DNA of 23,392 bases from an uncultured virus (IMG/VR IMGVR_UViG_3300031673_000002). Taxonomy: Duplodnaviria > Heunggongvirae > Uroviricota > Caudoviricetes. Positions 8,198 through 20,800 of this stretch are shown here, in pieces. The position numbers were made by a program, and so were the translations under genes. The notes under the pieces are model-generated. The model ran no database searches. It saw only the letters and a program-made list of their open reading frames with translations, and was not told the origin of the DNA. Location: IMG/VR virus record IMGVR_UViG_3300031673_000002. One strand, written 5' to 3'. The first letter of the stretch is position 1. Every line of letters begins with the position of its first letter.

Positions 8198-8200
8198 TGT

Positions 8201-8611: not shown

Positions 8612-8640
8612 ATTGAGTGGCATCGTCTTGAGCTTCTAAC

Positions 8641-8714
8641 TGGCTGCGGGAGCAGGACTTGAACCTGCATGGCCGGTATCAAAAACCAGTATCCTACCAT
8701 TAGATGATCCCGCA
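8641..8714 (-). tRNA. trnQ: tRNA-Gln(UUG)
   Basis: Loop TT-TTG-AT, U1-A72, G73, CCA. Confidence 0.92.
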
Positions 8715-8744
8715 TCGAGGTGACGAAGCATCACGCGCGGGGTG

Positions 8745-8820
8745 TGGCAGGGGCATCGAGAGTCGAACTCGAAGCCTTCGGTTTTGGAGACCGGTGCTCT
8801 ACCAGTTGAGCTATACCCCT
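8745..8820 (-). tRNA. trnW: tRNA-Trp(CCA)
   Basis: Loop CT-CCA-AA, G73, CCA. Confidence 0.93.
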
Positions 8821-8937
8821 TCAGCCGCGCGGATGCTTGCGTTGGCCGAAGGGGCGCCAATAATGCTGCATAAACATCACGGCACCCTGCTTCGCAGCGG
8901 GACAAGTCGTCTTGGTGATGTTGGTTGCAGTCTTCAT
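8821..8937 (-). CDS. putative leader peptide MKTATNITKTTCPAAKQGAVMFMQHYWRPFGQRKHPRG (may start at ATG 8877)
   Basis: Stop abuts tRNA-Trp 5' end; MFMQHYW matches the amino acids of the downstream tRNA block; SD weak. Confidence 0.6.
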   Translation of the reverse strand: MKTATNITKTTCPAAKQGAVMFMQHYWRPFGQRKHPRG

Positions 8938-8997
8938 GGCGTGCTTCTTCTGGGTTTTGGTCGGGCACCCAGTTGGTGGTGCTCACGACTCCTGACG

Positions 8998-9027
8998 ATA
9001 GTATGCGAAGTCAGATTCAGAACGCAA
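8998..9027 (-). promoter_or_regulatory. putative sigma70-like promoter for the Trp-to-Met tRNA block
   Basis: TTGCGT-N18-TACTAT. Confidence 0.4.
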
Positions 9028-9048
9028 CTGGAAAATGCAGATCCGGGA

Positions 9049-9324
9049 TCACTTTTTCTGGGATCGGCGCTTCTCCAGGAACGCCATCGTCTCTTTCATC
9101 GTGTAGTGCCACTTCATCTTGACGTGGGCCATACCCATGGCGATACCCCAGGCGTTACGGAACCTGTAGTCCAGGCTGAGCGGGTCACCGGGCAGCATCT
9201 TCTTCCCCAGCATACCGCGCCAGTACCCCACCGCGTGCCATGGGACCAAGAGCAGGTAGCGTCGTCGCCACAAGCGTACAGGCCAGCGCTGGTTCTGGAA
9301 GCGGTTGTCTATTGGCGGAGTCAT
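9049..9324 (-). CDS. hypothetical basic protein (91 aa)
   Basis: GAGGT SD; ATGA overlap with upstream gene; 3' part of ORF 9049..9570. Confidence 0.65.
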   Translation of the reverse strand: MTPPIDNRFQNQRWPVRLWRRRYLLLVPWHAVGYWRGMLGKKMLPGDPLSLDYRFRNAWGIAMGMAHVKMKWHYTMKETMAFLEKRRSQKK

Positions 9325-9515
9325 GACACGCTTACCTCGTCGATGACCGAGAAGTAGCCCCGCAACTGCCAGGACTCTCGACCCGTTTTGTCCCTCTTGA
9401 CGAGGAAGATGTCGGTGCCGTGTTCGGTGCGTTGGTTGATGATCCGGCCTGTCAAGATCCACCCAAGGTACCGATGCGGGATTCCGACACGTCGGCCTAC
9501 GAGGTGGTGCTTCAC
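9321..9515 (-). CDS. hypothetical protein (64 aa)
   Basis: TAGTG coupling upstream and ATGA coupling downstream; AAGGA SD. Confidence 0.6.
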   Translation of the reverse strand: MKHHLVGRRVGIPHRYLGWILTGRIINQRTEHGTDIFLVKRDKTGRESWQLRGYFSVIDEVSVS

Positions 9516-9760
9516 TAAAGACCGTAGTCCTTAGCGTTGCACTCACAGATGGTGGTCTGCGGATGACCACAGTCGGAGCACCCGCCTACTTCCTTGTGTG
9601 GATCGAGTCCGAAGCGGACACACAGCAGCGTTGCTGAGGTGGACCCCAGGCCAAACAAGGTCGCCACATGCGACCAGAGCGGAGCGCGGTCAGTAGACCT
9701 CTGTCCAGCGTTTGCGACAGCGAAGGAAAGAAGGCTCTCGTCGTCACGGGTGTCGGCCAT
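9515..9760 (-). CDS. small phage-type protein with C-terminal Cys cluster (81 aa)
   Basis: AAGGT SD before ATG 9760; LWSHVATLFGLGSTSATLLCVRFGLDP then CxxC/CxC. Confidence 0.7.
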   Translation of the reverse strand: MADTRDDESLLSFAVANAGQRSTDRAPLWSHVATLFGLGSTSATLLCVRFGLDPHKEVGGCSDCGHPQTTICECNAKDYGL

Positions 9761-9774
9761 GACTGACCTTAAAG

Positions 9775-9804
9775 GAAAAGGCCCTGGTTGCCCAGGGCCT
9801 TTTC
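9775..9804 (-). terminator. intrinsic terminator after HNH gene (possibly bidirectional)
   Basis: GAAAAGGCCCTGG-GCAA-CCAGGGCCTTTTC followed by CTTT. Confidence 0.8.
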
Positions 9805-10404
9805 TCAGTCTTCCAGCTCGGTGTTCCAGTACGCAGCCGAAGCCGGATCGACGAAGGGCATCCACTCCTTGTAGGGCACCCTGCCCTTGCGAGGCAAGAC
9901 ACCGCTCCACTTGGGACGCACGGGCTCACGCAGGAGCTTCATGCGCGCCTCGCGGGGAGTACGTCCACCCTTCTTCAGGTTGCAGTCGATGCAGGAACAC
10001 ACGATGTTCTCCCACCGCGTCCTACCACCCTGCGTCTTAGGCACCACATGGTCGAGGTTGAGCTTCGACCGCGCGAACTCCTTTGCGCAGTACTGACAAG
10101 TGAAATCGTCACGGGCGTAGATGTTCTGACGACTGAACCGGATCTTGTTCCGGGGGATCTTGTCGAAGGTCTGGAGCACGAGGACACGGGGGATCTTCAA
10201 CACCGACTTCACGGTGCTGATGACGTCGTCGCCGTGGTCTGCCGCGAGAGCCGACCAGGAATCATAGTCGAAGGTCTGGTACTGGTCGTCGAGGGCGCGA
10301 GCGGCTCCGGAGTACAGTAGACCGAATGCACGCTCCACCCCCGTGACTGCTACCGGCTGGTAGCCACGGTTGAGGACAAGTACCTGTGCGTTCACGTTGG
10401 TCAT
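9805..10404 (-). CDS. HNH endonuclease (199 aa; VLVLN...P-type)
   Basis: VLVLNRGYQP N-terminus; FSRQNIYARDDFTCQYC, LNLDHVVP-x3-GG-x3-WENIVCSCIDCNLKKGGRTP; AAGGAG SD before ATG 10404. Confidence 0.93.
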   Translation of the reverse strand: MTNVNAQVLVLNRGYQPVAVTGVERAFGLLYSGAARALDDQYQTFDYDSWSALAADHGDDVISTVKSVLKIPRVLVLQTFDKIPRNKIRFSRQNIYARDDFTCQYCAKEFARSKLNLDHVVPKTQGGRTRWENIVCSCIDCNLKKGGRTPREARMKLLREPVRPKWSGVLPRKGRVPYKEWMPFVDPASAAYWNTELED

Positions 10405-10466
10405 AGCTGTACCCCTCTCCTTCAGGGTGTGAGACGACGGGTGTCGCCGGTTACTGACAGATGCGG

Positions 10467-10543
10467 TGGCGCTCCCAACATGACTCGAACATGTGGCCTT
10501 CAATTTAGGAAATTGACGCTCTATCCACCTGAGCTATAGGAGC
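10467..10543 (-). tRNA. trnR: tRNA-Arg(CCU)
   Basis: Loop TT-CCT-AA, A20, CCA. Confidence 0.92.
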
Positions 10544-10557
10544 ATGATGCATGATGA

Positions 10558-10634
10558 TGGTGCGCTCGGAAGGGCTTGAACCTTCGACCCCCAGCTTAGA
10601 AGGCCGGTGCTCTATCCAACTGAGCTACGAGCGC
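10558..10634 (-). tRNA. trnR: tRNA-Arg(UCU)
   Basis: Loop CT-TCT-AA, A20, CCA. Confidence 0.93.
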
Positions 10635-10828
10635 ATACCCTGACCGACAACGGTCAGAGGTCTTCGCTCGAAGCTCCTGTGGGGACAGACGCCGGGAGAC
10701 GCACACGGGTAGAGGACTTCCTGCTCCCCGTCGCCGCAAGGCTCGAACCGAGCACCAACTGGACCGCCGTCCCGCGCCCGACACACATGAGGTGCTTCCC
10801 AGATGTCTACGTTTTTCAGGTCACTCAT
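10625..10828 (-). CDS. putative leader ORF (67 aa) with AGG/CGA/AGA codons, ending inside tRNA-Arg(UCU)
   Basis: AAAGGA SD; stop is the tRNA U8-A9-G10; AGG at 10676-10678, AGA at 10661-10663. Confidence 0.45.
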   Translation of the reverse strand: MSDLKNVDIWEAPHVCRARDGGPVGARFEPCGDGEQEVLYPCASPGVCPHRSFERRPLTVVGQGMRS

Positions 10829-10840
10829 CACGGTCCTTTG

Positions 10841-10917
10841 TGGCGCGCACGGCAGGACTTGAACCTGCGGCCTCAACCTTCGGAAAGTCGCGCTCTATCC
10901 AACTGAGCTACGCACGC
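10841..10917 (-). tRNA. trnR: tRNA-Arg(CCG)
   Basis: Loop TT-CCG-AA, A20, CCA. Confidence 0.92.
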
Positions 10918-10966
10918 ATCATCGCTCCTTTCGAGGGCAGGAGCAACACCCTTTCTTGTCTATCTT

Positions 10967-11042
10967 TGGAGCAGGCGATGGGATTTGAACCCACGACATC
11001 CGACTTGGAAGGACGGCGCTCTACCAACTGAGCTACACCTGC
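10967..11042 (-). tRNA. trnG: tRNA-Gly(UCC)
   Basis: Loop CT-TCC-AA, U73, CCA. Confidence 0.93.
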
Positions 11043-11043
11043 A

Positions 11044-11118
11044 TGGTGCGTCTGGCCGGATTTGAACCGACGCGCATTCGGTTATGAGCCGACCGCTCTA
11101 CCGCTGAGCTACAGACGC
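11044..11118 (-). tRNA. tRNA-Met(CAU), non-initiator (Met or Ile2 unresolved)
   Basis: Loop CT-CAT-AA, G1-C72, A73, CCA. Confidence 0.9.
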
Positions 11119-11132
11119 TCTGACTTAGGATA

Positions 11133-11208
11133 TGGTGCGTCCAGCAGGATTTGAACCTGCGACCTATACCATGTCAAGGTAGCGCTCTACCAACTGAGCT
11201 ATGGACGC
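11133..11208 (-). tRNA. trnV: tRNA-Val(GAC)
   Basis: Loop TT-GAC-AT, CCA. Confidence 0.93.
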
Positions 11209-11213
11209 AAAGA

Positions 11214-11281
11214 GCGAGCAAGATGATGCCAGTGTGGGGTGTGTCAACCATTTGATAACCCACGTTCGGCGTTCGGCTCGC
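11214..11281 (-). ncRNA. short Y RNA-like (68 nt), no tRNA module
   Basis: GCGAGC-C-GA / CUUGCUCGC bulged-C stem; GUGGGUUAUC...CCCCAC inner stem. Confidence 0.75.
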
Positions 11282-11289
11282 GAACAAGC

Positions 11290-11427
11290 TGAGAGCAAGG
11301 AGTGCGGCGAGGGAGATTTTAACGTTGCTCTACCAACTGAGCTACGCCCCCAAAAGTGGGGACGACGGGACTCGAACCCGCGACCAACGGCTTGGAATGC
11401 AGATAACCCTCAGTGCTTCGGCTCTCA
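11290..11427 (-). ncRNA. yrlA: YrlA-type Y RNA (Ro60 stem plus permuted tRNA-like domain)
   Basis: GAGAGC-C-GA / CUUGCUCUC stem; T arm GCGGG-UUCGAGU-CCCGU, then closed acceptor-like stem, then D arm GCUC-AGUUGGUA-GAGC; no anticodon loop. Confidence 0.9.
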
Positions 11428-11447
11428 AACCTTTCAGAATCAAAGTG

Positions 11448-11524
11448 TGGTGCGTCCGGCAGGGGTCGAACCTGCGGCCTCTGGTTTCGTAGACCAGCGC
11501 TCTGTCCAACTGAGCTACGGGCGC
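11448..11524 (-). tRNA. trnR: tRNA-Arg(ACG)
   Basis: Loop CT-ACG-AA, A20, CCA. Confidence 0.93.
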
Positions 11525-11536
11525 ATGAAGAAAAGC

Positions 11537-11669
11537 GACGAGCAAGTAGGTGACCTGGATGTTTTACGCGCTCTACCGATTGAGCTATCCGGCATCTGGT
11601 TGCCGGAGAGGGACTCGAACCCCCAACCACGCGAGTATGATTCGATAATCCAGTATCTGTCGGCTCGTC
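11537..11669 (-). ncRNA. yrlA: YrlA-type Y RNA
   Basis: GACGAGC-C-GA / CUUGCUCGUC; T arm GGGGG-UUCGAGU-CCCUC, closed stem UCCGGCA/UGCCGGA, D arm GCUC-AAUCGGUA-GAGC. Confidence 0.9.
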
Positions 11670-11678
11670 AAAGAAATA

Positions 11679-11810
11679 GTGAGCAAGTAGTCGCGAAGGG
11701 GACGCTAAACTGGTGCGCTGCCGGACTGCGCCACACGGCATTACTGCCATGGCAGGATTTGAACCTGCGACCCCCAGTGACCTTTGGGTAACCCTAAGCT
11801 GTCGGCTCAC
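11679..11810 (-). ncRNA. yrlA: YrlA-type Y RNA
   Basis: GUGAGC-C-GA / CUUGCUCAC; T arm GCAGG-UUCAAAU-CCUGC, closed stem CAUGGCA/UGCCGUG, D arm GCGC-AGUCCGGCA-GCGC. Confidence 0.9.
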
Positions 11811-11836
11811 AAACCTCTGTGAAATCGTTAGAAGGT

Positions 11837-11873
11837 TAGGTGACGGGCTCCGACGAGCGAAGCCCGTCACCTA
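11837..11873 (-). other. 13-bp stem-loop after rsr stop (mRNA end protection or processing site; no U tract)
   Basis: TAGGTGACGGGCT (11837-11849) / AGCCCGTCACCTA (11861-11873). Confidence 0.6.
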
Positions 11874-11882
11874 TTCAGTCGG

Positions 11883-13595
11883 TCAGCCTCGCGCGAACGA
11901 GGCCATGACCTGGGGCGTGTCGGCAGAGAAGCCGACAACATCGAGCATCCCTGCATCGCTGGGATCAGCGATGCTGAATCCCGTCGAGGTCATGCCCATG
12001 ACGATGAGCTTCGCTGCCCGTCCCATCGTCTGCCGGTACTGGCGGAGTGCCTGCACCGGGTGAATGTTTCCTGCCCAGGTCTCGTTGTCGGTGATCACCA
12101 CGAAGGTGTCCACTTCCAGCTTCTTCTCGGTTGCGTACGTCATCGGAAGAGCGCAGTCGGTTCCGCCGAAGGGCAGACCGGACACCGAGCGGACAGCGTC
12201 CGTCAGTGACATGCGGTCGTGGAGCTTCAACTCGCTGACCCCTGCTCCAAAGCGCGGACCCCACTGTGAGCGGCCCGGGCCTCCCGTGAATCCGATGACG
12301 TGGTGTGCCGGCTCGACGTTCATGGTCACGAGGGCCATGGCAGCCGATGCTTCACGGGCAGACAAGGGCGAACCCAGGATCTGTGCTCCCATGGAGCCCG
12401 ACACGTCGAGTGCGAGCAGCCAGTTCTGGTTCGTGGGCTCGACTGCCTTGAACGCCAGGTAGAACGCCTTGTCCAGTGCGGACACAATGTTCCTGTCAGC
12501 CGTCCAGACCAGCTTGCCCTTGTGACCGTGACCCTGCTCATAGGTTCGGAGCGCCATCAAGATAGCCATCGGGTGGACCCGTGCCCTCGCCAACTCGTTC
12601 GCGTCGCACAGGCGTGCGGTCACGAACTTGGAAGCATCCGACAGGGGCTTGGTGAGCCCGATGCTCGACATCTTGCCGAGGTTCCGAATCATGGCCGTCA
12701 CGGGCATGCCCTTGCCAGCCATGAGCAGCGCCTCCCAGACCGCGAGGTCGTTGAGGTGCTCCGTCTTCACGCACTCACGGGGCAGACCGTACTCGACGAT
12801 CAGCTTGGCCGTGTCGCGCGCTGAGGTCGCCTCTCGTGCCTTCTCCACGCCCTCGACCAGCCGGGGCAGGTCGCGCTTGTAGAGCCGCTTGTAGGTCCCC
12901 TCAGACAGCACGGTGCCGTCCTTCGTCGTCCGGGTCACCTTGCGCTGAGCGAGCTTGCCGTCAGCGATGAGGTACCGGAACAAGGTCTCGTGACCCTTGG
13001 TCGCGGGCGCCGTGCCCTTCTTCGCACCCATGTGAGACTTGGCGAGCAAGTCCTTGTGGGTCCAGCCCTCGCGGGACTGGTACTTGAAGAGGTCGAGCGC
13101 CAGACGGTCGGGCGACTTCGCGTTGTAGTACGACGCCACGGCCTTCGCCGTGATGCGACCCCAGCCGCCGAGAGCCTGGCAGGCTTCCGCGAACTGGAAG
13201 ATGTGCGTACCGATACGGCAGACCTTGGGCACGGCGTCCTTAGCAGCCCGACGGGTGTCGAGGTCGCCCTGCTTCATGGCCAACGCCAACGCGAAGATGG
13301 CCGGGTCGTTCTTGGGCGCGAGGCCCTGCTCCGACACCTCGACGATGCGAGCCACGGCACGAGCACCATCGGCCTTGATGCAGCGGATCACGCACTCGGC
13401 GTTCTCGATGGTCAGCTTGCGCTCGGAAGCGTAGTACGTACCCGCCTCGGCACCGAGGATCAGGAAGCGGTCGAACCGCGTCCAGTCGTCAACGGCGAAC
13501 ACGAAACCACCAGCGTTGTTCTTGACCTGCGTCGAGCCGGGGATCTTCTCCCGCTGCGAGGTCTTCTTCGTGTTGAAGTGCTGTGCGTACGTCAT
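11883..13595 (-). CDS. rsr: Ro60 / TROVE-domain RNA-binding protein (Rsr)
   Basis: QVKNNAGGFVF, RFLILGAEAGTYY, KYQSREGWTHKDLL, AMIRNLGKMS, RVHP, vWA MIDAS DVSGSM, GGTDCALPM, TDNETW; AGAGGAG SD. Confidence 0.97.
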   Translation of the reverse strand: MTYAQHFNTKKTSQREKIPGSTQVKNNAGGFVFAVDDWTRFDRFLILGAEAGTYYASERKLTIENAECVIRCIKADGARAVARIVEVSEQGLAPKNDPAIFALALAMKQGDLDTRRAAKDAVPKVCRIGTHIFQFAEACQALGGWGRITAKAVASYYNAKSPDRLALDLFKYQSREGWTHKDLLAKSHMGAKKGTAPATKGHETLFRYLIADGKLAQRKVTRTTKDGTVLSEGTYKRLYKRDLPRLVEGVEKAREATSARDTAKLIVEYGLPRECVKTEHLNDLAVWEALLMAGKGMPVTAMIRNLGKMSSIGLTKPLSDASKFVTARLCDANELARARVHPMAILMALRTYEQGHGHKGKLVWTADRNIVSALDKAFYLAFKAVEPTNQNWLLALDVSGSMGAQILGSPLSAREASAAMALVTMNVEPAHHVIGFTGGPGRSQWGPRFGAGVSELKLHDRMSLTDAVRSVSGLPFGGTDCALPMTYATEKKLEVDTFVVITDNETWAGNIHPVQALRQYRQTMGRAAKLIVMGMTSTGFSIADPSDAGMLDVVGFSADTPQVMASFARG

Positions 13596-13643
13596 GGCAT
13601 TCTCCTCTGTAGGGCAATCATGGCCCTGTTTGTTAGAAAAGGC

Positions 13644-13707
13644 GAGAGCAAGTGAGGTGCTTCAGGGGGAAATCTTTACCTGGATAACCCTGGTGCGTTC
13701 GGCTCTC
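13644..13707 (-). ncRNA. short Y RNA-like (64 nt) immediately 5' of rsr
   Basis: GAGAGC-C-GA / CUUGCUCUC; CAGGGUUAUC...CCCUG inner stem. Confidence 0.78.
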
Positions 13708-13710
13708 AAA

Positions 13711-13806
13711 TGGTTGCGGGAGGAGGAATCGAACCTCCGTCGCTCGGGTTATGAGCCCAAGTTCAGTGCCCTAGCTTTCGATAGGGCTTCCAGCACCGTC
13801 CCCGCG
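13711..13806 (-). tRNA. initiator tRNA-fMet(CAU) with about 20-nt hairpin inserted in the D loop
   Basis: C1:A72 mismatch, GGG/CCC anticodon stem, loop CT-CAT-AA, normal T arm, CCA; 96 nt. Confidence 0.85.
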
Positions 13807-13807
13807 A

Positions 13808-13881
13808 TGGCTCAGGCAGAGGGATTTGAACCCCCGTCCCCGGGTTAACGGCCCGGTGCTACGCCTCTCAGCTATGCCTGA
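13808..13881 (-). tRNA. trnN: tRNA-Asn(GUU) with C33
   Basis: Loop CC-GTT-AA, U1-A72, G73, CCA. Confidence 0.9.
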
Positions 13882-13924
13882 TCAGTGCCTACTACGTCCT
13901 GATAGGTCTTCGAACTCCTGTGCA

Positions 13925-14001
13925 TGGTGCTCCCAGGGGGATTTGAACCCCCGTTGCCGCCGTGAGAGGGCGGTGTCCTTGGCCAGCTAGACGATAGGAG
14001 C
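13925..14001 (-). tRNA. trnE: tRNA-Glu(CUC)
   Basis: Loop CT-CTC-AC, CCA. Confidence 0.93.
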
Positions 14002-14004
14002 GTA

Positions 14005-14080
14005 TGGTGCTCTCGACGGGATTTGAACCCGTGTTGCCCGAGTGAAAACCGGGTCTCCTAGGCCACTAGAGGACGAGAGC
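14005..14080 (-). tRNA. trnE: tRNA-Glu(UUC)
   Basis: Loop TT-TTC-AC, CCA. Confidence 0.93.
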
Positions 14081-14126
14081 ATGTGCGTGGATTTCGCGTG
14101 CGTTCTTCTGCTTCTTCAGGTTCCAT
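14058..14126 (-). CDS. putative Glu-rich leader peptide MEPEEAEERTRNPRTCSRPLVA
   Basis: Strong AAGGAGG SD; five GAA in the first eight codons; runs into tRNA-Glu(UUC). Confidence 0.65.
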   Translation of the reverse strand: MEPEEAEERTRNPRTCSRPLVA

Positions 14127-14178
14127 CTCGTCCTCCTTCCTTTCCTTGTTGTTAAGGTAAAAGTTTTTACCTTAGCTG

Positions 14179-14254
14179 TGGTACCTGAAGCCGGGCTCGA
14201 ACCGACGACCTGCGGTATGTGACACCGCCGCTCTTCCAACTGAGCTATTCAGGC
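14179..14254 (-). tRNA. trnV: tRNA-Val(CAC)
   Basis: Loop GT-CAC-AT (G32), CCA. Confidence 0.9.
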
Positions 14255-14291
14255 AAGTGCTGCCTCGGACCTGTCCCCGAGGCGTGGACTG

Positions 14292-14366
14292 TGGAGCGGA
14301 TGAAGGGATTTGAACCCTCGACCTTCACGTTGGCAACGTAGTGCTCTACCACTGAGCTACATCCGC
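14292..14366 (-). tRNA. trnG: tRNA-Gly(GCC)
   Basis: Loop TT-GCC-AA, U73, CCA. Confidence 0.93.
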
Positions 14367-14371
14367 ATTTG

Positions 14372-14447
14372 TGGTCCGCCGGGGAAGGATCGAACTTCCG
14401 CATACGCCCTTATCAGGAGCGCCTCTTAACCACTTGAGTACCGGCGG
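14372..14447 (-). tRNA. trnI: tRNA-Ile(GAU)
   Basis: Loop CT-GAT-AA, A73, CCA. Confidence 0.9.
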
Positions 14448-14473
14448 TCGCCGGTAATGTCGCTGTCTTCCAT
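14426..14473 (-). CDS. putative leader peptide MEDSDITGDRRYSSG
   Basis: GAAGGTGA SD; stop in D loop of tRNA-Ile; ATT codon at base of a hairpin pairing with the tRNA 5' strand. Confidence 0.45.
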   Translation of the reverse strand: MEDSDITGDRRYSSG

Positions 14474-14498
14474 GTCGATCACCTTCTCTCTTTCCTGC

Positions 14499-14574
14499 TG
14501 GAGCCCGGAGCGGGAGTTGAACCCACGGCCTCCTGATTACGAAACAAGCGCTCTGCCGACTGAGCTATCCGGGC
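14499..14574 (-). tRNA. trnT: tRNA-Thr(CGU)
   Basis: Loop TT-CGT-AA, CCA. Confidence 0.9.
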
Positions 14575-14578
14575 GCAC

Positions 14579-14654
14579 TGGAGCCGCCAGCGGGGGTTGA
14601 ACCCGCGACCTCGTCCTTACCAAGGACGCACTCTTCCAACTGAGCTATGGCGGC
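14579..14654 (-). tRNA. trnT: tRNA-Thr(GGU)
   Basis: Loop TT-GGT-AA, CCA. Confidence 0.93.
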
Positions 14655-14660
14655 GTAGGG

Positions 14661-14737
14661 TGGTGGGTCGGGCGGGGCTCGAACCCGCGACCGATCGATT
14701 AAAAGTCGAATGCTGCTACCGCCTGAGCTACCGACCC
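14661..14737 (-). tRNA. trnK: tRNA-Lys(UUU)
   Basis: Loop CT-TTT-AA, CCA. Confidence 0.92.
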
Positions 14738-14784
14738 ACAGTCGTGGCGGTCTTGCGTTTGAGGCGGATCTCCGTGGTGCTCAT
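14728..14784 (-). CDS. putative Lys/Thr-rich leader peptide MSTTEIRLKRKTATTVGR
   Basis: Strong AGGAAGGAG SD; 5 Thr and 2 Lys in 18 codons; stop is U8-A9-G10 of tRNA-Lys(UUU). Confidence 0.62.
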   Translation of the reverse strand: MSTTEIRLKRKTATTVGR

Positions 14785-14802
14785 GATGTTCTCCTTCCTT
14801 TG

Positions 14803-14880
14803 TGGTCCGTCGAGGGGGAATCGAACCCCCATTCAGTCTGAGTAAGAGTCAGGTGCAAAGCCAGTTTTTGCTATCGACGG
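14803..14880 (-). tRNA. trnK: tRNA-Lys(CUU)
   Basis: Loop CT-CTT-AC, D stem GCAA/TTGC, CCA. Confidence 0.87.
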
Positions 14881-14927
14881 TCGTCATGTTGTGGACTGTC
14901 CAAGGTCGTCCCTACCTTCTGCTTCCG

Positions 14928-15004
14928 TGGTCCGAGAGGCAGGATTTGAACCTGCGGCCCCTGCACCCCCAGCGCAGTGCTCTGCCAAGCTGAGCTACTC
15001 TCGG
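14928..15004 (-). tRNA. trnP: tRNA-Pro(GGG)
   Basis: Loop CT-GGG-GG, C1-G72, A73, CCA. Confidence 0.92.
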
Positions 15005-15007
15005 TCG

Positions 15008-15083
15008 TGGTGGAGATGACAGGCTATGATCCTGCGACCTTCTCGATGCCATCGAGACGCTCTCCCAACTGAGCTACATCCCC
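15008..15083 (-). tRNA. trnA: tRNA-Ala(GGC), atypical T loop
   Basis: Loop AT-GGC-AT, G3.U70, A73, CCA; T loop ATCATAG. Confidence 0.88.
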
Positions 15084-15137
15084 GTATTGTCGCCCGTCTC
15101 TCCGAGCAGCCACGCCAGACAAAGACGGCGTTCCCTT

Positions 15138-15214
15138 TGGTGGAGTCGGGGACAGATCGAAGTCCCTACTTCGCCTTGCAAGGGCGGCGTTTTCGCCACG
15201 TAAACTACGACCCC
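15138..15214 (-). tRNA. trnA: tRNA-Ala(UGC), atypical T arm
   Basis: Loop CT-TGC-AA, G3.U70, CCA; T arm GGGAC-TTCGATCT-GTCCC. Confidence 0.86.
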
Positions 15215-15323
15215 AAAATGACCCTACTTCTTGCCTGGTGTGGGGAGGGTCACACCCACTTCCTGTTTTCCAGGGCTTCCACCTGGGAGCCCAATGCTTT
15301 CCTCCTTTTTGGGTAGGTGGTGA

Positions 15324-15402
15324 TGGCGGCACGTACGGGATTTGAACCCGTGATCTCCTCCGTGACAGGGAGGCGTCCTAAACCGAACTAGACCAACGCA
15401 CC
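15324..15402 (-). tRNA. trnD: tRNA-Asp(GUC)
   Basis: Loop CT-GTC-AC, G73, CCA. Confidence 0.93.
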
Positions 15403-15409
15403 AAATGAA

Positions 15410-15480
15410 CCTTCCCAGAACGTTTGAACCCCCTCGACCGTCTGACGGCCAAGGGGGTTCAAGTGAACCTGGGCGTCAGA
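15410..15480 (-). promoter_or_regulatory. attenuator-like RNA switch between tRNA-Pro(CGG) and tRNA-Asp
   Basis: 18-bp hairpin 15424-15462 mutually exclusive with pairing 15474-15480/15441-15447 plus 15464-15469/15456-15461; no clear U tract. Confidence 0.5.
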
Positions 15481-15488
15481 AAAGATGG

Positions 15489-15725
15489 TCAGCCAGTACC
15501 GGCTTCAACGCGACGATCATTCGCATTGATCGCGGTCGTCCCGAAAATCGAGGTGCGCTTGGCGCAGATGAAGCTCTCTGCTGATTTTTGGTCTCGGTGG
15601 AGGGAATCGAACCCCCGTTTTCTTGCTCCCGAAGCAAGCGGCCTACCTGACTGGCCCACACCGAGGCACGGGGAAGCAGAGAGCTTCACTGGCGACGGCT
15701 TTGTAGGTGGGGTCATGGTGAACAT
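15489..15725 (-). CDS. putative 78-aa leader ORF reading through tRNA-Pro(CGG)
   Basis: ORF track; GAGG SD; five Pro before the tRNA-Pro; stop lies 8 nt before the switch at 15480. Confidence 0.4.
   Translation of the reverse strand: MFTMTPPTKPSPVKLSASPCLGVGQSGRPLASGARKRGFDSLHRDQKSAESFICAKRTSIFGTTAINANDRRVEAGTG
15589..15665 (-). tRNA. trnP: tRNA-Pro(CGG)
   Basis: Loop TT-CGG-GA, C1-G72, A73, CCA. Confidence 0.9.
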
Positions 15726-15763
15726 CGAAATCGAGCCTCGGTGCGCAAGGTGCGCGTTGGTCT

Positions 15764-15797
15764 TCTATAGGTAGTGCAAAGCAGACGGGGAAGTCAA
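15764..15797 (-). promoter_or_regulatory. putative promoter of the main tRNA-rsr-Y RNA operon
   Basis: TTGACT at 15792-15797 with A-rich upstream tract; -10 region CTACCTATAGA is imperfect. Confidence 0.4.
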
Positions 15798-15882
15798 CCG
15801 GCTTCTTCGCAATTTCTTGATCTTTTTTTCATCGCCATAAGATCCGGGCACTTACGTGGATCCAATGTCATGGATCAGCGTA

Positions 15883-16134
15883 TCATACGGGCAGCCCTCT
15901 TCGTTCGATCTCAGCCCGTATCAGGCCGGGCGTGATTAAGTGCTTGATGCCGCCAGGGGCGTTGACGACGAAAGGGTGCCGCTTCTTGTGGGCCTTCGCC
16001 TGGAGCTTACGGAGCTTCTTCTCTGTCTTGCTTTGGAGGAAGGTAACGGTGTCATCAGCCGATGCTACTTTCTTGCCCCTGCCGACAGCAACCTGCTCGT
16101 GTATGGGCCGCGCACTGCTTGGCTCGGTAGTCAT
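15883..16134 (-). CDS. hypothetical basic protein (83 aa)
   Basis: ORF track; GGTGA SD; follows AAA ATPase gene. Confidence 0.6.
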   Translation of the reverse strand: MTTEPSSARPIHEQVAVGRGKKVASADDTVTFLQSKTEKKLRKLQAKAHKKRHPFVVNAPGGIKHLITPGLIRAEIERRGLPV

Positions 16135-16196
16135 CGTTTCACCACGGGGAGATACTCATACCGGTCCTCCGCAGATCACGAACACACGCTACGCCA

Positions 16197-18479
16197 TCAA
16201 TCCATAACGGCAGGAGCGCGCACCTCGTCCGGGATGGGGAATTCCATGCTCTTCTTCGCGTCAGGGCGCTTCGATGAGGTCTTCTTCTGTCCCGTGCTGT
16301 TCAGGTTGGCCGTGAGCTTGTGCGCCGACTCGTAGGTCTGAACCGCCGTCTGGATCTCCTGACGGATGGCGAGGTTGCCGACGAGGTGATCCACCGCGTT
16401 GGACAAGTCCAGTGAGGTCACGGTTGCATGCGGTGCAAGGCGCTTCTTGAGCTTGGCCTTGTCCTCCGCTGTGAACTCCGTGAGATCGAATCGTCCTGTC
16501 TCCTCCGTCAAGCTCGTGACGACTTCCTCGGCGACCTTGGGGTGCATGCGCACGAACGTACCGAGCTTGTCTCGCCAGATGTGGTCACCAACCTTACGGA
16601 TGATGTCACCCACGGCGCCTTCGAGCTTCTGTGCCGCTTCTTCCCAGGCATCGTGCTTGATGTTGGTAGGAAGGTAGCCCTCGACAAACTGCTTGAGCAG
16701 CTTCACCCGATCTGCCTGCGTCAGCTCGCCGACGATGACCACCTTGTTGAATCGGCGGAGCATCGCGTGCGGGATGCGCTGCGGGAAGTTGGTCGCTCCC
16801 CACACCGACAAGTTCGGGTACTGGACGACGCCATCCATGAGGATCTGGAATTCCAGCGTCAGGTTCGTGCTGCTGAAGTCGCGGTCGTCATTGAGAACGG
16901 AGTCGATCTCATCGATGAGGAAGTGAACGCGACGCTTCGCTTCCTTGCTGAGACGAAGACCCGCCTCGAACAGACGCTTGGGGTTCTTCTCAGCCTCTCC
17001 CTTCCAGCAGGTAAGGAAGTCCGAACCCTGAGCGAACACGCCGATCGAATCCTTGTCGCCACCCACGGCGCGGAGAATCTCCGACTTACCCGATCCCGGA
17101 GGACCCACAAGCAACACGTTGGCCTTGTCCGCTGTCTTGCTCGGCGAGGTCGCCAAGAACAGATTGTGGAACTTGTTGGTCTCCTCGATGGACTGGATGA
17201 AATCCTTGACCTCATCGAAGCCGCTGCCCCTGATCTCGTCGAGGGTTGCGAGGGGGCGCTGTCCCGGAGTGACCTTGAGGGCGCCGGGTGCCTCGCCACC
17301 GAAGGGGTTGCCCGCACTGATCGAGCACACGTAGAACGAGTTCTCCTCGTGGAAGAACTTGCGCAGCTCTGCTTTGCGGTTGAGGACGTAGTTGACGAGG
17401 TCATCGACACTCACCATGTTGTCGACAAGGTGGTCCACAATGGCTTCGAGGGTCTCGTTCTGAAACGCAAGAGCGAAGCGCTCCTCGCGCGTCATCATCC
17501 GTTCCTTGTCACGGCTCACTACGTCGGCTGGGTTGAGATCCTCGATCGCTTGCAGGGCGACGTCGATCGACCCCACATCCTGCCTACGAGCTAGCTGCCC
17601 GTCCAGGTACGACATCGCCATCCGGGTGGCGTCCGAGAAGCCTGCCTGCAAAGACTTCACTGAGGAACGCATCATGCCGAGGTAGACGGTCGTGAACTTG
17701 ATGAGCGTGTCTGGGGCGTAGAGGAGCGATGCCGCGTTCGAGTTCTTGACGAAGGACGCAACCAGCTTCGCCTTGCTCAGCGAGTAGGCGGAAAGCTCAT
17801 CAGGATTCTTGCCGTCCTGAATCTCACCATCGGCGTCGATGTTGCTGTACACAGCCATCGCGATGTCGGTGATGATCGGGTCGCGGTGGATTTGCAACCC
17901 TTCCACCGTGTGCCGATGGATCAGCTTCTTGTGGTAGCTCTCCAGGCTGTGCTGAATGTCCTCTGCCATCTTGGTCAAGTAGATGTCGGCGTCCCTCAAC
18001 GAGATGAGCGCCCCGATGTTGCGGGAGAGCGTGGGCGCGTTGAGCTGCATCTCGAAGTGGAGGTTCTGGACGTCCTTGCCGTCGCGCATCGAGTCGTAAC
18101 GGCTCTTGGAGAGCACGAAGTCACCCGGGGTGAGGTCGTTCATCAGGGACAGCATCTCATCGTACAGGCGCTGGAGGGACGACGTGATGACGTAGCCCAC
18201 GTCGATGAAGGTGTCCGTGGTGACAGCTTCCTCAAACGGATCGACTGCTTCCATCATGCCGGCGGGTCGGTTCCTGCGTAGCGAGTTCCTCTTGTTCTCG
18301 CCAACCATCGCCCTCCGTGCCTGACGGAAGACGGAAGAGAACTCCTCAAGCTCCTGCACTTGGTCAGCGAGGTGTCTCTTGAACTCCTCCATAGGAGCAC
18401 TTCTACCCCTCATGCTCTCGACGACCTTGACCAGGCCATAGAAGCGGTTGGGATTGTAGAAGTCGATCTTGGTGCTCAT
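16197..18479 (-). CDS. AAA+ ATPase (classic AAA clade) with long N-terminal region
   Basis: Walker A GPPGSGKS, pore loop WKGEAEK, Walker B FLIDEID, SRH GATNFPQRIPHAMLRRF. Confidence 0.92.
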   Translation of the reverse strand: MSTKIDFYNPNRFYGLVKVVESMRGRSAPMEEFKRHLADQVQELEEFSSVFRQARRAMVGENKRNSLRRNRPAGMMEAVDPFEEAVTTDTFIDVGYVITSSLQRLYDEMLSLMNDLTPGDFVLSKSRYDSMRDGKDVQNLHFEMQLNAPTLSRNIGALISLRDADIYLTKMAEDIQHSLESYHKKLIHRHTVEGLQIHRDPIITDIAMAVYSNIDADGEIQDGKNPDELSAYSLSKAKLVASFVKNSNAASLLYAPDTLIKFTTVYLGMMRSSVKSLQAGFSDATRMAMSYLDGQLARRQDVGSIDVALQAIEDLNPADVVSRDKERMMTREERFALAFQNETLEAIVDHLVDNMVSVDDLVNYVLNRKAELRKFFHEENSFYVCSISAGNPFGGEAPGALKVTPGQRPLATLDEIRGSGFDEVKDFIQSIEETNKFHNLFLATSPSKTADKANVLLVGPPGSGKSEILRAVGGDKDSIGVFAQGSDFLTCWKGEAEKNPKRLFEAGLRLSKEAKRRVHFLIDEIDSVLNDDRDFSSTNLTLEFQILMDGVVQYPNLSVWGATNFPQRIPHAMLRRFNKVVIVGELTQADRVKLLKQFVEGYLPTNIKHDAWEEAAQKLEGAVGDIIRKVGDHIWRDKLGTFVRMHPKVAEEVVTSLTEETGRFDLTEFTAEDKAKLKKRLAPHATVTSLDLSNAVDHLVGNLAIRQEIQTAVQTYESAHKLTANLNSTGQKKTSSKRPDAKKSMEFPIPDEVRAPAVMD

Positions 18480-18739
18480 GTCTTATCCCGGTAGGTGGTA
18501 TAGGACCGATGGTAGGCGCACCTTCCTCGCCTACCTGCGGTGGTCGTCCGCTCCGGCTCCTGCCCGCCGTGGGCTCGCGGTTTGGTGTTTGGTTACAGGC
18601 ATCAATCACCGCGAGGAGACAGCCCAAGGAAACGCTACCTCGTCGTGAGGTTGTTGTCAGCCCTCTTCTGTTGGCGTCGGGCGCCGCCATGAGCTTCTGC
18701 CGAATGCGTTTCACTTCGACATCCTTCCAGATAGGCGAC

Positions 18740-18856
18740 TCAATCTACCCAGCCGTCACCACGAAGGAGGTGCCACGTGCGGTGCTTGAGTACCTCAAGC
18801 ACCAAACGAAAGAGAGACGGGGCCTCGTACACGCCTGCGGTGGTGATTAGCTTCAC
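18740..18856 (-). CDS. small hypothetical protein MKLITTAGVYEAPSLFRLVLEVLKHRTWHLLRGDGWVD (38 aa)
   Basis: GAGGGA SD and TAGTG coupling with methyltransferase stop; 3' part of ORF 18740..18940. Confidence 0.55.
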   Translation of the reverse strand: MKLITTAGVYEAPSLFRLVLEVLKHRTWHLLRGDGWVD

Positions 18857-19467
18857 TATTCGTCCCTCACTCTCTGCATGCGATGGGCAACAGGCTCGGC
18901 GTGCGCCAGCACGGGAGCTTCCAGTCCCCACGCTGCCCAACCCGGCGCCGACTCGCGGGCGAACAACTCAATCCGAGGCCGGTCGCCAAAGAGGCGGACG
19001 ATGTGGTCACGGACGATAGCCGGCTTCTTGCTATGCTTGCCTGGCCTCTGGTGGGGCACGACCTGTGGTACCGCAGCGTCGAGCAGAGGGAACGGGCGGC
19101 CCCTCTTCTGCGGCGTCGCCAGGAGACAAAGCTCCGATGTCGGCTTCGTCCCCGTCGGCGGAACACCCTGCCCGTGGATGAGACCGCCGTCCCGCCGCGT
19201 CTTCACCCAGTTGAAGGCAACACCTCGGTAGCACAGGCCCCAAGCAGCTATGGCCTGGAAGGCAAGATCGAGTCTCGGGCACGTTGCCCAGACGAAGAAG
19301 GCTCCGCGCTTCGGGTCACGTAGAAGGCCCTTCATGTCCAGTGCGCAGATCGACTCCATCGACATGAGGTCGTAGTGCTTGCCTGCCGCAGCGTCCTTGT
19401 TCGGGTCGCCGTACATTGGCCATGCAGGGTCAGCATAGATGATGTCGTAGTGCGGACCCCAGGTCAC
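18856..19467 (-). CDS. MT-A70 family adenine methyltransferase
   Basis: YDIIYADPAW (DPPW-like), HYDLMS, FFVWAT, AWG-x2-Y-x5-WVK, HSKKP, RIELFARE-x2-PGW-x2-WG; likely GTG start 19467 (ORF track start 19494). Confidence 0.92.
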   Translation of the reverse strand: MTWGPHYDIIYADPAWPMYGDPNKDAAAGKHYDLMSMESICALDMKGLLRDPKRGAFFVWATCPRLDLAFQAIAAWGLCYRGVAFNWVKTRRDGGLIHGQGVPPTGTKPTSELCLLATPQKRGRPFPLLDAAVPQVVPHQRPGKHSKKPAIVRDHIVRLFGDRPRIELFARESAPGWAAWGLEAPVLAHAEPVAHRMQRVRDE

Positions 19468-19601
19468 GTCGTCACCGCTCCGATCAGAAGGCACGTCGAG
19501 AGGACAAAGCGCACTCTAATGGGCGGGACAGCAACGCACAGTAAAAAAATCCCAAGTACCAAAAACAACCAAGAAGCAAAGAGAAGATTCCGATGACCCA
19601 A
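19464..19601 (-). CDS. possible small membrane peptide (45 aa)
   Basis: TTG start with GAGG upstream, hydrophobic LLFASWLFLVLGIFLLCVAV, GTGA overlap with methyltransferase start. Confidence 0.3.
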   Translation of the reverse strand: MGHRNLLFASWLFLVLGIFLLCVAVPPIRVRFVLSTCLLIGAVTT

Positions 19602-19841
19602 GTATTCCGCCTCGCTGATCTGAAGAGACGCTGCAAGCGCTGCCACAGGATCGACTGCGAGGACCACTGCGTACAATGTGGGAAAGACCACGATCACGAC
19701 GACAACGATTCCGATGTCTGTCTCTCGTGTGAAGCAAAGAACGACCCAATCGTAGTCGACGACGACAACGACCTGTGGCAGCCACCGGTCTACCCCGCCG
19801 ACGTGCTCTACGTAGTCAAGCACTACCGCAAGCAACGGTGA
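19593..19841 (+). CDS. small Cys-rich putative zinc-binding protein (82 aa)
   Basis: CxxC-x4-C-x3-CxxC...CxxC pattern, GC3-rich codons, ends just before the 19856 hairpin. Confidence 0.6.
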   Translation: MTQVFRLADLKRRCKRCHRIDCEDHCVQCGKDHDHDDNDSDVCLSCEAKNDPIVVDDDNDLWQPPVYPADVLYVVKHYRKQR

Positions 19842-19851
19842 CCAACAGCGC

Positions 19852-19892
19852 AAAACGGGATGCGTAGCTGGATGAGCCAGCTACGCATCCCG
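19852..19892 (-). terminator. terminator of the Leu/Ser tRNA block
   Basis: 16-bp perfect stem 19856-19871/19877-19892 followed by TTTT on minus strand. Confidence 0.78.
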
Positions 19893-19900
19893 GATCGCTA

Positions 19901-19988
19901 TGGCGGAGGGTGAGGGATTTGAACCCCCGGTGCCGCGAAGCACAACCGATTTCAAGTCGGTCGCAATCAGCCTCTCTGCCAACCCTCC
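19901..19988 (-). tRNA. trnS: tRNA-Ser(UGA)
   Basis: Loop CT-TGA-AA, long variable arm, G73, CCA. Confidence 0.93.
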
Positions 19989-20011
19989 ATAAATGGCGGC
20001 TACGGTGAGAA

Positions 20012-20098
20012 TGGAGGAAAGCAGCGGGATCGAACCGCACACCCGAAGGTGCCACTTGATTAGCAATCAAGGCCAGGACCAGACCTGGGTTACTTTCC
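20012..20098 (-). tRNA. trnS: tRNA-Ser(GCU), atypical D arm
   Basis: Loop TT-GCT-AA, long variable arm, A8, extended D stem CCAGG/CCTGG, CCA. Confidence 0.85.
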
Positions 20099-20102
20099 AT
20101 AG

Positions 20103-20197
20103 TGGCGGAAGGAGAGGGGGTCGAACCCTCACGACCCCTTTCGAGGTCAGTCCGATTTCGAGTCGGGTGCCGGCGCCATCTATCGGCTGGTCCTTCC
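20103..20197 (-). tRNA. trnS: tRNA-Ser(CGA)
   Basis: Loop CT-CGA-AA, long variable arm, G73, CCA. Confidence 0.88.
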
Positions 20198-20201
20198 AAA
20201 A

Positions 20202-20296
20202 TGGCGGATGGAGCGAGGGTCGAACTCGCACGACCCCTTTCGAGGTCAGCCCGATTTCCAATCGGGTGCCGGCGCCAACTATCGGCTGGCCCATCC
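20202..20296 (-). tRNA. trnS: tRNA-Ser(GGA)
   Basis: Loop TT-GGA-AA, long variable arm, G73, CCA. Confidence 0.88.
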
Positions 20297-20329
20297 AGAG
20301 AGAGAGAGCAAGTACCTTCTGCTCTTTCA

Positions 20330-20416
20330 TGGTACTCAAAACAGGACTTGAACCTGCACGCCCTTTCGGGCACAACCACCTCAAGGTTGCGTGTCTACCA
20401 GTTCCACCATTTGAGC
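20330..20416 (-). tRNA. trnL: tRNA-Leu(GAG)
   Basis: Loop TT-GAG-GT, long variable arm, A73, CCA. Confidence 0.92.
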
Positions 20417-20433
20417 AAACCTAAAACTATACT

Positions 20434-20520
20434 TGGTGTAAGCGGGGGGACTTGAACCCCCAGGTGGGTTTCCCCTTCGGAACTTAAACCCGCTGCGTCT
20501 GCCAATTCCGCCACGCTCAC
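20434..20520 (-). tRNA. trnL: tRNA-Leu(UAA)
   Basis: Loop TT-TAA-GT, long variable arm, A73, CCA. Confidence 0.88.
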
Positions 20521-20525
20521 ATAGT

Positions 20526-20611
20526 TGGTACCCCGAGGGGGACTTGAACCCCCACGCCCTTTCGAGCACTGCCTTCTGAGGGCAGCATGTCTGCAATTCC
20601 ATCACCGGGGC
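20526..20611 (-). tRNA. trnL: tRNA-Leu(CAG)
   Basis: Loop CT-CAG-AA, long variable arm, A73, CCA. Confidence 0.9.
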
Positions 20612-20614
20612 ACA

Positions 20615-20699
20615 TGGTACCGAGAGGGGGACTTGAACCCCCACGTCAAAAGACACCGGGGTTTGAAGCCAGCGCGTCTGCCAATTCCGCCATCTCGGC
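20615..20699 (-). tRNA. trnL: tRNA-Leu(CAA)
   Basis: Loop TT-CAA-AC, long variable arm, A73, CCA. Confidence 0.9.
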
Positions 20700-20800
20700 A
20701 CAGGTGGTGGTACGTATTCAGTTGTGGTCACGATGGCTGGTCGTTTTCGGGAGCCTTGGTCCTCATCTTCAATTCGCGAATTGCGATCGTCCCTTCCCAG

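Follow-up and report, generated by a model that had tools for sequence, protein, structure and literature searches.

A short leader frame with a rare cognate codon ahead of a phage tRNA-Lys(UUU) block

The Lys leader and its tRNA block

The window considered here is the whole stretch of 23,392 nucleotides (nt) of IMG/VR record IMGVR_UViG_3300031673_000002 (Caudoviricetes), an uncultured phage-like element of 59% GC. According to ARAGORN it carries 35 tRNA genes, all on the minus strand, and 34 of the 35 reach the Rfam gathering score. The subject of this analysis is a short reading frame led by a strong Shine-Dalgarno (SD) sequence, hereafter the Lys leader, which lies between the genes for tRNA-Lys(CUU) and tRNA-Lys(UUU). 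A first-pass annotation had described a strong SD and a short Lys/Thr frame at 14728-14800, ahead of the block Lys(UUU)-Thr(GGU)-Thr(CGU), and all of these elements are present in the sequence. Judged by sequence comparison, the Lys leader is one of a small leader set in this phage lineage, each member apparently standing directly before a tight tRNA block. The features of the Lys leader and of the window's other leaders are as follows.

14803..14880, minus strand: tRNA-Lys(CUU), the upstream neighbour of the leader (ARAGORN; Rfam, 50.1 bits)
14791..14801, minus strand: SD region, with the core AAGGAG at 14796-14791 (sequence)
14728..14784, minus strand: mini-ORF (open reading frame) of the Lys leader, 18 sense codons including the ATG, and a TAG stop (translation, ORF scan)
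14740..14778, minus strand: span of five Thr codons (14778-14776, 14775-14773, 14751-14749, 14745-14743, 14742-14740)
14758..14760, minus strand: AAA, codon 9 of the Lys leader, its first base 23 nt before the tRNA
14752..14754, minus strand: AAG, codon 11 of the Lys leader
14730..14751, minus strand: proposed stem, leader 14751-14744 pairing with 14739-14730 (fold of the spacer plus tRNA bases 1-12)
14661..14737, minus strand: tRNA-Lys(UUU), the first tRNA behind the leader (ARAGORN; Rfam, 59.8 bits)
14579..14654, minus strand: tRNA-Thr(GGU) (ARAGORN, Rfam)
14499..14574, minus strand: tRNA-Thr(CGU) (ARAGORN, Rfam)
14426..14473, minus strand: Ile leader before tRNA-Ile(GAU), SD −11.9, 15 sense codons with one ATT, stop inside the tRNA
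14058..14126, minus strand: Glu leader before tRNA-Glu(UUC), Glu(CUC) and Asn(GUU), SD −14.1
15250..15294, minus strand: SD-led short frame with a TTG start before tRNA-Ala(UGC), ending 38 nt short of the tRNA

The SD of the Lys leader is purine-rich, lies 6 bases ahead of the ATG (14784-14782) and is predicted to form an anti-SD duplex of −11.2 kcal/mol, SD scores being pairing energies to a generic anti-SD string that is not host-specific. The frame occupies the 65-nt spacer between the two tRNA-Lys genes and runs on into the second one, so that its last 10 bases lie inside tRNA-Lys(UUU) and its TAG stop (14730-14728) is made of bases 8-10 of this tRNA. The three tRNA genes behind it are separated by gaps of 6 and 4 nt. 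The Thr codons of the leader are exactly the ACC, ACG, ACC, ACG and ACT read in the first-pass annotation, and they form codons 3, 4, 12, 14 and 15. The same annotation had attached meaning to the absence of ACA. No UGU anticodon is indeed found among the 35 tRNAs, but the argument carries no weight, because ACA is itself uncommon (7% of Thr codons across the window's long ORFs) and none in five would be expected about 70% of the time by our own arithmetic; its absence from the leader is therefore uninformative. The window's Glu leader holds five GAA codons and one AAT, and its stop also lies inside the tRNA. On the opposite strand, plus-strand ORFs at 14597-14845 and 14710-14841 are antisense to the tRNAs.

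Start sites of this strength are rare in shuffled sequence. Over the minus strand of the window, 28 SD-plus-start sites score at or below −9 kcal/mol, and five of them fall in the tRNA spacers of the 13.8-15.4 kb region. Fifteen spacers of 25-150 nt, 977 nt in total, were compared with dinucleotide shuffles. At a cut-off of −11 they contain four SD-plus-start sites against a shuffle mean of 0.29, a count reached by none of 500 shuffles; with ATG as the only start, three sites are found and 0.09 expected (again 0/500). The antisense strand of the same spacers has a single site at −11, and none when only ATG is allowed. With the looser cut-off of −9 the signal weakens, to five sites against 1.04 (4/500 shuffles), and the antisense strand also gives five. 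Given the distance of the strong sites from the shuffle mean, they are real features.

Conservation of the leader in related tRNA arrays

Close relatives of the window are scarce in the collections searched. A near search of the phage collection with the window returned one 56-base tRNA match only and the plasmid collection returned none, and a distant search gave tRNA-level matches only. The protein of the Ro60/TROVE gene (11883-13595), which lies among the window's tRNA genes, has 356 phage matches, every one below 60% identity. Ro60 proteins 62-81% identical to it are present in public metagenomes; the comparison of leaders that follows covers contigs more distant than these. Among the matches listed in a metagenome scan with a Ro60 alignment, relatives were at most 55% identical. 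In IMG/VR, the window Ro60 alone gave no match, a 26-base tRNA-Lys piece matched a single unrelated contig of low GC (L001), a degenerate leader pattern matched nothing beyond the contig of L102 (described below), and the Ro60 of L166 (likewise) found one 46% relative, L167, in which the general scan detected no leader. A genome-contig scan yielded L166 together with a tRNA-free contig, L165. From these IMG/VR, metagenome and genome-contig scans, four contigs are informative: L166, L102, L101 and L076.

L166, a contig of 49.8 kb, carries the label of a metagenome-assembled genome and has a Ro60 about 60% identical to that of the window. Its array is syntenic with the window's: Lys(CUU), 76 nt, Lys(UUU), three Thr tRNAs and Met, followed after 70 nt by Ile(GAU) and Val, after 62 nt by Arg, after 91 nt by Glu(UUC), and then by Glu(CUC), Asn, Ro60 and Val(GAC). 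L102 is a 113-kb IMG/VR contig (Ro60 53-55% identical) with the order tRNA-Tyr, 67 nt, Lys(UUU), Lys(CUU), Gln. In L101 and L076 (Ro60 55-57% identical), Lys(CUU) and Lys(UUU) are separated by 46 or 59 nt.

The tie between the leader and tRNA-Lys(UUU) that had been proposed from the window alone is borne out in these contigs: an SD, an ATG and a short frame running into tRNA-Lys(UUU) are found in all five lineages (the window, L166, L102, L101 and L076), and AAA occurs at least once in each of the five leaders. Since the upstream neighbour in L102 is tRNA-Tyr, it is the downstream tRNA with which the leader is associated. The window's Ile and Glu leaders have counterparts in L166, where a fourth leader precedes tRNA-Ile(UAU). 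The distant arrays L163 and L164 and about ten other Lys(UUU) contexts have no leader before tRNA-Lys(UUU); L164 retains an SD-like motif and has no start codon.

Conservation is visible at the level of the frame. The Lys leaders of the window and L102 have in common the run Glu-x-Arg-Leu-Lys-Arg-Lys-x-Ala, with 12 identical bases across Leu-Lys-Arg-Lys and, as read from the two sequences, the synonymous changes GAG/GAA, CGC/AGA and GCC/GCG. Those of the window and L166 have Thr-Glu-x-Arg-x-Lys-Arg in common, with CGC/CGA. The local alignment of the two Lys spacers falls inside the frame and its score is reached by 4 of 500 shuffles; the corresponding figures are 21/500 for the Ile spacers, 59/500 for the Glu spacers and 300/500 for the non-leader spacer from Glu(CUC) to Asn. 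The tRNA bodies themselves are strongly divergent between these phages. The Ile leaders of the window and L166 contain Met-Glu-Asp-x-Ile-Thr-Gly, with a one-codon indel and two synonymous changes, and the Glu leaders agree in length, SD, a Glu-rich N-terminal half and one Asn codon, their base-level similarity being weak. A block common to L101 and L076 can code for Lys-Pro-Ser-Cys-Gly-Ala; it also pairs with tRNA bases 4-12 in a strong two-tier hairpin, with one compensatory change, and here structure and coding cannot be separated.

Such amino-acid conservation with synonymous changes (window/L102 and window/L166), together with the frame-preserving one-codon indel in the Ile leader, is what would be expected if the leaders were small basic or acidic micropeptide genes, active in their own right, for example in RNA binding, and merely packed between tRNA genes. 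Many genuine small genes do lie between the tRNAs of L101 and L076, among them a 29-codon hydrophobic one. None of the 10 leaders has a stop of its own, however. All 10 frames end inside the tRNA, between bases +8 and +38, their lengths and C-termini vary freely, and RNase P cleavage would remove the stop from the message. In addition, the peptides of L101 and L076 have nothing in common with the window's beyond a Lys. An independent micropeptide is thus very unlikely.

The leaders could also be relics, the starts of former small genes truncated by tRNA gain or by deletions, in which codon matches reflect chance and composition. The tRNA arrays of this group are mosaic and often gain or lose genes, codon matching is absent from the TTG frame before tRNA-Ala and from several weak frames, and the distant arrays L163 and L164 are leaderless, the latter with its SD-like motif and no start codon. 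Against this, the SD, the ATG, the open frame and AAA persist where other spacers are unalignable and tRNA bodies differ strongly, and the strong start sites stand far above the shuffle expectation; we regard relics as distinctly improbable. Anatomy and conservation together make it likely that the Lys leader is a translated, selected mini-ORF, a judgement made on sequence and one that we hold with good, though not complete, confidence.

Among the sequencing runs listed for this DNA, none is recorded as RNA. Contigs from four soil or sediment runs contain mainly cellular tRNA matches. Two short ones (X3 record 15 and X4 record 21) match the window only from 14710 or 14719 to 14796, with 8 differences each, and are unlike it beyond; the difference at 14764 is the synonymous change CGC to CGA in codon 7. 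Their confinement to this segment suggests that the SD, the leader and the 5' end of the tRNA may travel as a module with another upstream neighbour.

Several further features of these arrays can be recorded. In L166, Glu(UUC) and Glu(CUC), two tRNAs that are 3 nt apart in the window, are separated by 361 nt occupied by an ORF (10952-11312), and a tRNA-Asp-like sequence not called by ARAGORN lies at about 13004-13090, directly before tRNA-Ala(UGC). L101 (1139-1417) and L076 (817-1087) contain a conserved spacer of about 275 nt before a tRNA called His(AUG) by ARAGORN, with tRNA-like pieces and an SD-led 7-codon frame without a cognate codon. Short words also recur: a CAGTGAAA-like word in the tRNA spacers of L166 (minus strand), in L101 and L076 a AAGAAGTGAAG-like word towards the 3' ends of both spacers and small ORFs, and AGAAGTAG-like words in the window ahead of tRNA-Ala(UGC) and tRNA-His. 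Possible roles are in processing or as promoters.

Codons, position and folding of the leaders

The codons of all four strong leaders of the window were matched, by standard wobble rules, to the next three tRNAs. Such cognate codons account for 7 of 14 in the Lys leader, 2 of 7 in the Ile leader, 6 of 14 in the Glu leader and 1 of 13 in the Ala TTG frame. The value for the Lys leader is the best of its 36 placements in the array, and the total of 16 over the four leaders is reached in 1262 of 1,679,616 random array placements. The three homologous leaders of L166 total 9 cognate codons (493 of 13,824 placements). Permuting the leaders among real leader sites is a weak test, with 2/24 for the window and 2/6 for L166. 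In in-frame shuffles, at least seven Lys plus Thr codons appear in 56 of 20000 and at least five Thr codons in 750 of 20000; at least five Glu codons are obtained in 30 of 20000.

AAA is the only cognate codon of the Lys leader that is conserved in the relatives. L102, L101 and L076 have no Thr tRNA behind the leader and no Thr codon in it, which agrees with codon matching but is probably a single evolutionary event. The choice of synonymous codon is more general. Each leader holds a rare A/U-ending codon of its first tRNA: AAA before Lys(UUU), GAA before Glu(UUC), ATT before Ile(GAU) and, in L166, ATA before Ile(UAU). In the long ORFs of the window (3675 codons), AAA represents 8% of Lys codons, GAA 27% of Glu codons, and ATT and ATA 9% and 3% of Ile codons; in those of the relatives, AAA represents 3-24% of Lys codons. 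Eight of the nine Glu codons in the Glu leaders are GAA, ATT is used in both Ile(GAU) leaders, and ATA, a codon that only tRNA-Ile(UAU) reads under standard wobble, is present in the L166 leader ahead of that tRNA. Over the 10 leaders, A or T is the last base of 17 of the 22 codons for the amino acid of the first tRNA and of 37 of the 102 remaining ones (Fisher one-sided p = 0.0005, an optimistic value because homologous leaders count separately).

Position is regular as well. In 8 of the 10 leaders the first base of a cognate codon lies 23-27 nt ahead of the tRNA (scan statistic, 110/20000), the exceptions being the L102 leader and the window's Ile leader, with the cognate codon at −11, and the leader ATG lies at −42 to −47 in five of the 10. 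When the SD cut-off is relaxed over the five loci, 10 of 15 ATG frames reading into a tRNA carry a cognate codon. A conserved rare cognate codon, a regular distance and read-through into the tRNA suggest that the leader senses decoding. Because the C-terminus is fixed by whichever tRNA follows, the peptide itself is unlikely to be the point. The reading we favour, tentatively, is that a translated cis-acting leader may couple the decoding of rare cognate codons to the output of the tRNAs behind it, in a way that would differ from a classical attenuator.

A simpler function would need no codon sensing. The leader may be a ribosome-loading element on the long unstructured spacers of a polycistronic tRNA/mRNA transcript, its peptide and codons being incidental; it could keep endonucleases or Rho away from these spacers, or set the order in which the tRNAs on either side are processed. 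Conservation is strongest in the SD and the ATG, the spacers are purine-rich and unstructured, the leaders are confined to the longer spacers of the 13.8-15.4 kb block at roughly one per three tRNAs, and the C-termini of the peptides are dictated by tRNA sequence. Such an element leaves unexplained the A/T-ending bias of the cognate amino-acid codons (17/22 versus 37/102), the AAA in all five lineages and the fit of the codons to the downstream block, and most of the phage tRNA arrays fetched do without such sites. We consider it unlikely.

A number of observations weigh against a sensing leader. First, homologous leaders were counted as separate data points in the codon-match, position and A/T-ending tests, and when one leader is kept per presumed family the position statistic weakens to 1271/20000, with the favourable Ile leader chosen. 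Second, the codon pattern has gaps. The TTG frame before tRNA-Ala, with its 1 of 13, is off pattern; the Ile leader of L166 has 1 downstream cognate codon in 11, and 4 for the upstream Thr/Met block; and 5 of the 15 ATG frames found with the relaxed SD cut-off carry no cognate codon. The Thr enrichment pointed out in the first-pass annotation is limited to the window, since L166 has 2 Thr in 13 spacer codons despite three Thr tRNAs downstream. Residues unrelated to the tRNAs (Glu, Arg) are conserved in the leaders too, and a preference for A- or T-ending codons close to a start codon can also come from selection to keep that region free of structure. Third, SD-led frames running into a tRNA are no commoner than in a reverse-complement control (24 against 22) when the 471 distinct tRNA 5' contexts of all retrieved loci with a GC content of 50% or more are counted. 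The leader design is specific to this lineage; seven of the eight strongest such frames belong to the window or L166.

The stem proposed in the first-pass annotation, one arm of which (14739-14730) consists of the last two spacer bases and tRNA bases 1-8, does appear in the predicted fold, but it is unexceptional: at −9.9 kcal/mol, 23% of 412 natural tRNA 5' contexts pair at least as well. On this scale leader-tRNA 5' pairing is ordinary in the window (23rd percentile) and in L102 (25th), and strong only in L101 (4th) and L076 (0.5th). A terminator scan of 7500-21000 found 18 sites, none of them in or behind the Lys leader (minus strand, 14499-14802); the five on the minus strand are at 9675, 15566, 17488, 18826 and 19758. 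The spacer has no significant fold (−6.4 kcal/mol, z = +1.54), 193 of 200 shuffles folding at least as well, and the four related Lys spacers are similarly unstructured (185, 156, 200 and 165 of 200). No mutually exclusive antiterminator and terminator pairings overlapping the leader end were found in the spacer folds of the window and its four relatives. Unfolded spacers of this kind, as predicted, are consistent with an open start site.

These results bear directly on another explanation, a leader-peptide transcription attenuator with a terminator/antiterminator switch. A short SD-led frame with an excess of cognate codons, immediately ahead of the genes to be controlled, is the layout such an attenuator would have. 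The scan nevertheless places no terminator in or after the leader, the spacer folds worse than 193 of 200 shuffles, and the frame enters the tRNA, so that a terminator has no room; with neither terminator nor spacer structure, the Lys leader is not a classical attenuator. The anatomy comes close to refuting this explanation, which we hold to be extremely improbable.

For a leader that senses decoding, the lack of terminator and spacer structure makes a competition between run-through ribosomes and tRNA folding or RNase P processing the most economical mechanism. When the cognate charged tRNA is plentiful, ribosomes would load at the strong start site, cross the spacer and enter the acceptor and D arm of the tRNA, and these run-through ribosomes would delay folding of the nascent tRNA and its cleavage by RNase P. 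When the cognate tRNA is scarce, either because the host barely reads the codon or because an anticodon nuclease attacks, a ribosome would park on the cognate codon about 25 nt upstream of the tRNA. Going by typical ribosome footprint sizes, its front edge would then stand about 13 nt before the tRNA, which could fold and be cut out; the parked ribosome may also shield the precursor from decay. The result would be a demand-driven supply of the tRNA block that needs no terminator, unlike the trp- or his-type transcription attenuator. In its full form, in which tRNA maturation is gated by ribosomes, the sensor of each block would hold back its tRNA and an unread rare codon would release the replacement tRNAs, triggered by a high-GC host poor in that tRNA or by an anticodon nuclease such as PrrC. 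This specific proposal is speculative and we regard it as doubtful.

Genomic setting, known systems and significance

Besides the Ro60/TROVE gene, an AAA ATPase, an HNH endonuclease and an MT-A70 methyltransferase are encoded among the window's tRNA genes. Other features outside the leader region are the following.

2788-3920, minus strand: two ArdA anti-restriction homologs, side by side
4252-7008, minus strand: helicase of 918 residues with ResIII and Helicase_C domains
11322-11389, 11564-11632 and 11711-11776, minus strand: three YrlA-type (Y RNA-like) matches, of 44, 40 and 36 bits
20107-20197 and 20206-20296, minus strand: tRNA-Sec-like genes, of 32 and 29 bits (gathering score 47)

The YrlA-type matches lie just downstream of Ro60, interleaved with tRNA-Arg(ACG), and score below the gathering score of 69; together with Ro60 they look like a phage module of Ro60 plus multiple Y RNAs. 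The helicase has a LAGLIDADG/homing-endonuclease segment at residues ~369-445, which suggests an intein or an inserted endonuclease domain. The two tRNA-Sec-like genes fall in a 341-nt 'spacer' (19989-20329, minus strand) containing tRNA-like genes not called by ARAGORN. Read by eye, they have Ser anticodons (CGA, GGA) and long variable arms, and by reading only they are followed by a third tRNA-like stretch with a GCT anticodon. The spacer from Tyr to His (8377-8524, minus strand) holds a direct tandem duplication of about 50 nt and, on the plus strand, repeated SD-like matches. Finally, the 206-nt spacer between tRNA-Arg(CCG) and tRNA-Arg(UCU) (10625-10828, minus strand) contains an SD-led ATG frame of about 67 codons, Cys-rich and ending inside the next tRNA, which may be a gene for a small zinc-binding protein.

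Several known systems resemble a sensing leader in part. In the amino-acid operon attenuators (thrL, hisL, trpL, pheL and leuL), a short SD-led frame also precedes the controlled genes and its codons report on the product of those genes, and in thrL more than one amino acid is sensed. Differences can be noted: the genes behind the phage leader encode tRNAs rather than enzymes, no terminator or antiterminator was found, the frame overlaps the first gene, and the regulatory codons are few, with one AAA in the Lys leader and a tandem pair in the Glu leader only. In the translation attenuation of erm and cat genes and the stabilisation of the ermC message, a ribosome stalled on the leader alters the fate of the downstream RNA without termination. 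In erm and cat leaders a drug stalls the ribosome and a ribosome binding site is thereby exposed, whereas the stall in the phage leader would come from tRNA shortage, the downstream element is a tRNA, and no conserved sequestering hairpin emerged from the pairing energies of the window, L102, L101 and L076. A basic-x-basic arrest motif of the macrolide type was considered in the Lys leader and dropped, as nothing downstream fits.

A parallel in what is sensed comes from mycobacteria, in which, as reportedly described by Barth et al. in 2021, Cys-rich short ORFs sense Cys-tRNA, including after cleavage of tRNA-Cys by VapC4. Small ORFs rich in a single codon would thus monitor the supply of one tRNA, destruction by a nuclease included. 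They control protein-coding operons of the cell, whereas the phage sensor would control the replacement tRNA itself. Among phages, the portions consulted of one paper describe PrrC as cleaving tRNA-Lys(UUU) (PMC10264068), and phage tRNA arrays are presented as a counter-measure to host tRNA nucleases in the available portions of three (PMC10264068; PMC11555353; PMC11464382). The window is like those arrays in its large phage-encoded set that includes tRNA-Lys(UUU), the PrrC target; unlike here, the same portions treat the tRNAs themselves and contain no translated leader before the tRNA genes. For this phage, the PrrC link raised in the first-pass annotation is a hypothesis drawn from the literature. 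In the literature search, which covered titles and abstract openings, no report was found of tRNA genes governed by a translated leader peptide.

If the leader does sense the codon of its own tRNA, leader-peptide logic would extend from amino-acid supply to tRNA supply, and the locus would connect with the current view of phage tRNAs as substitutes for those of the host lost to defence nucleases. Should it act by occlusion of tRNA folding or processing rather than by termination, the mechanism itself would be new. Ribosome-gated maturation, if true, would provide a self-correcting tRNA supply at the processing level, and with it a built-in answer to tRNA-targeting defences. For the question of how phages control their large tRNA sets, this locus offers a compact and testable case: the frame is 57 bases long, a single rare codon is conserved in it at a fixed distance from the tRNA, and the lineage has three further leaders of the same design.

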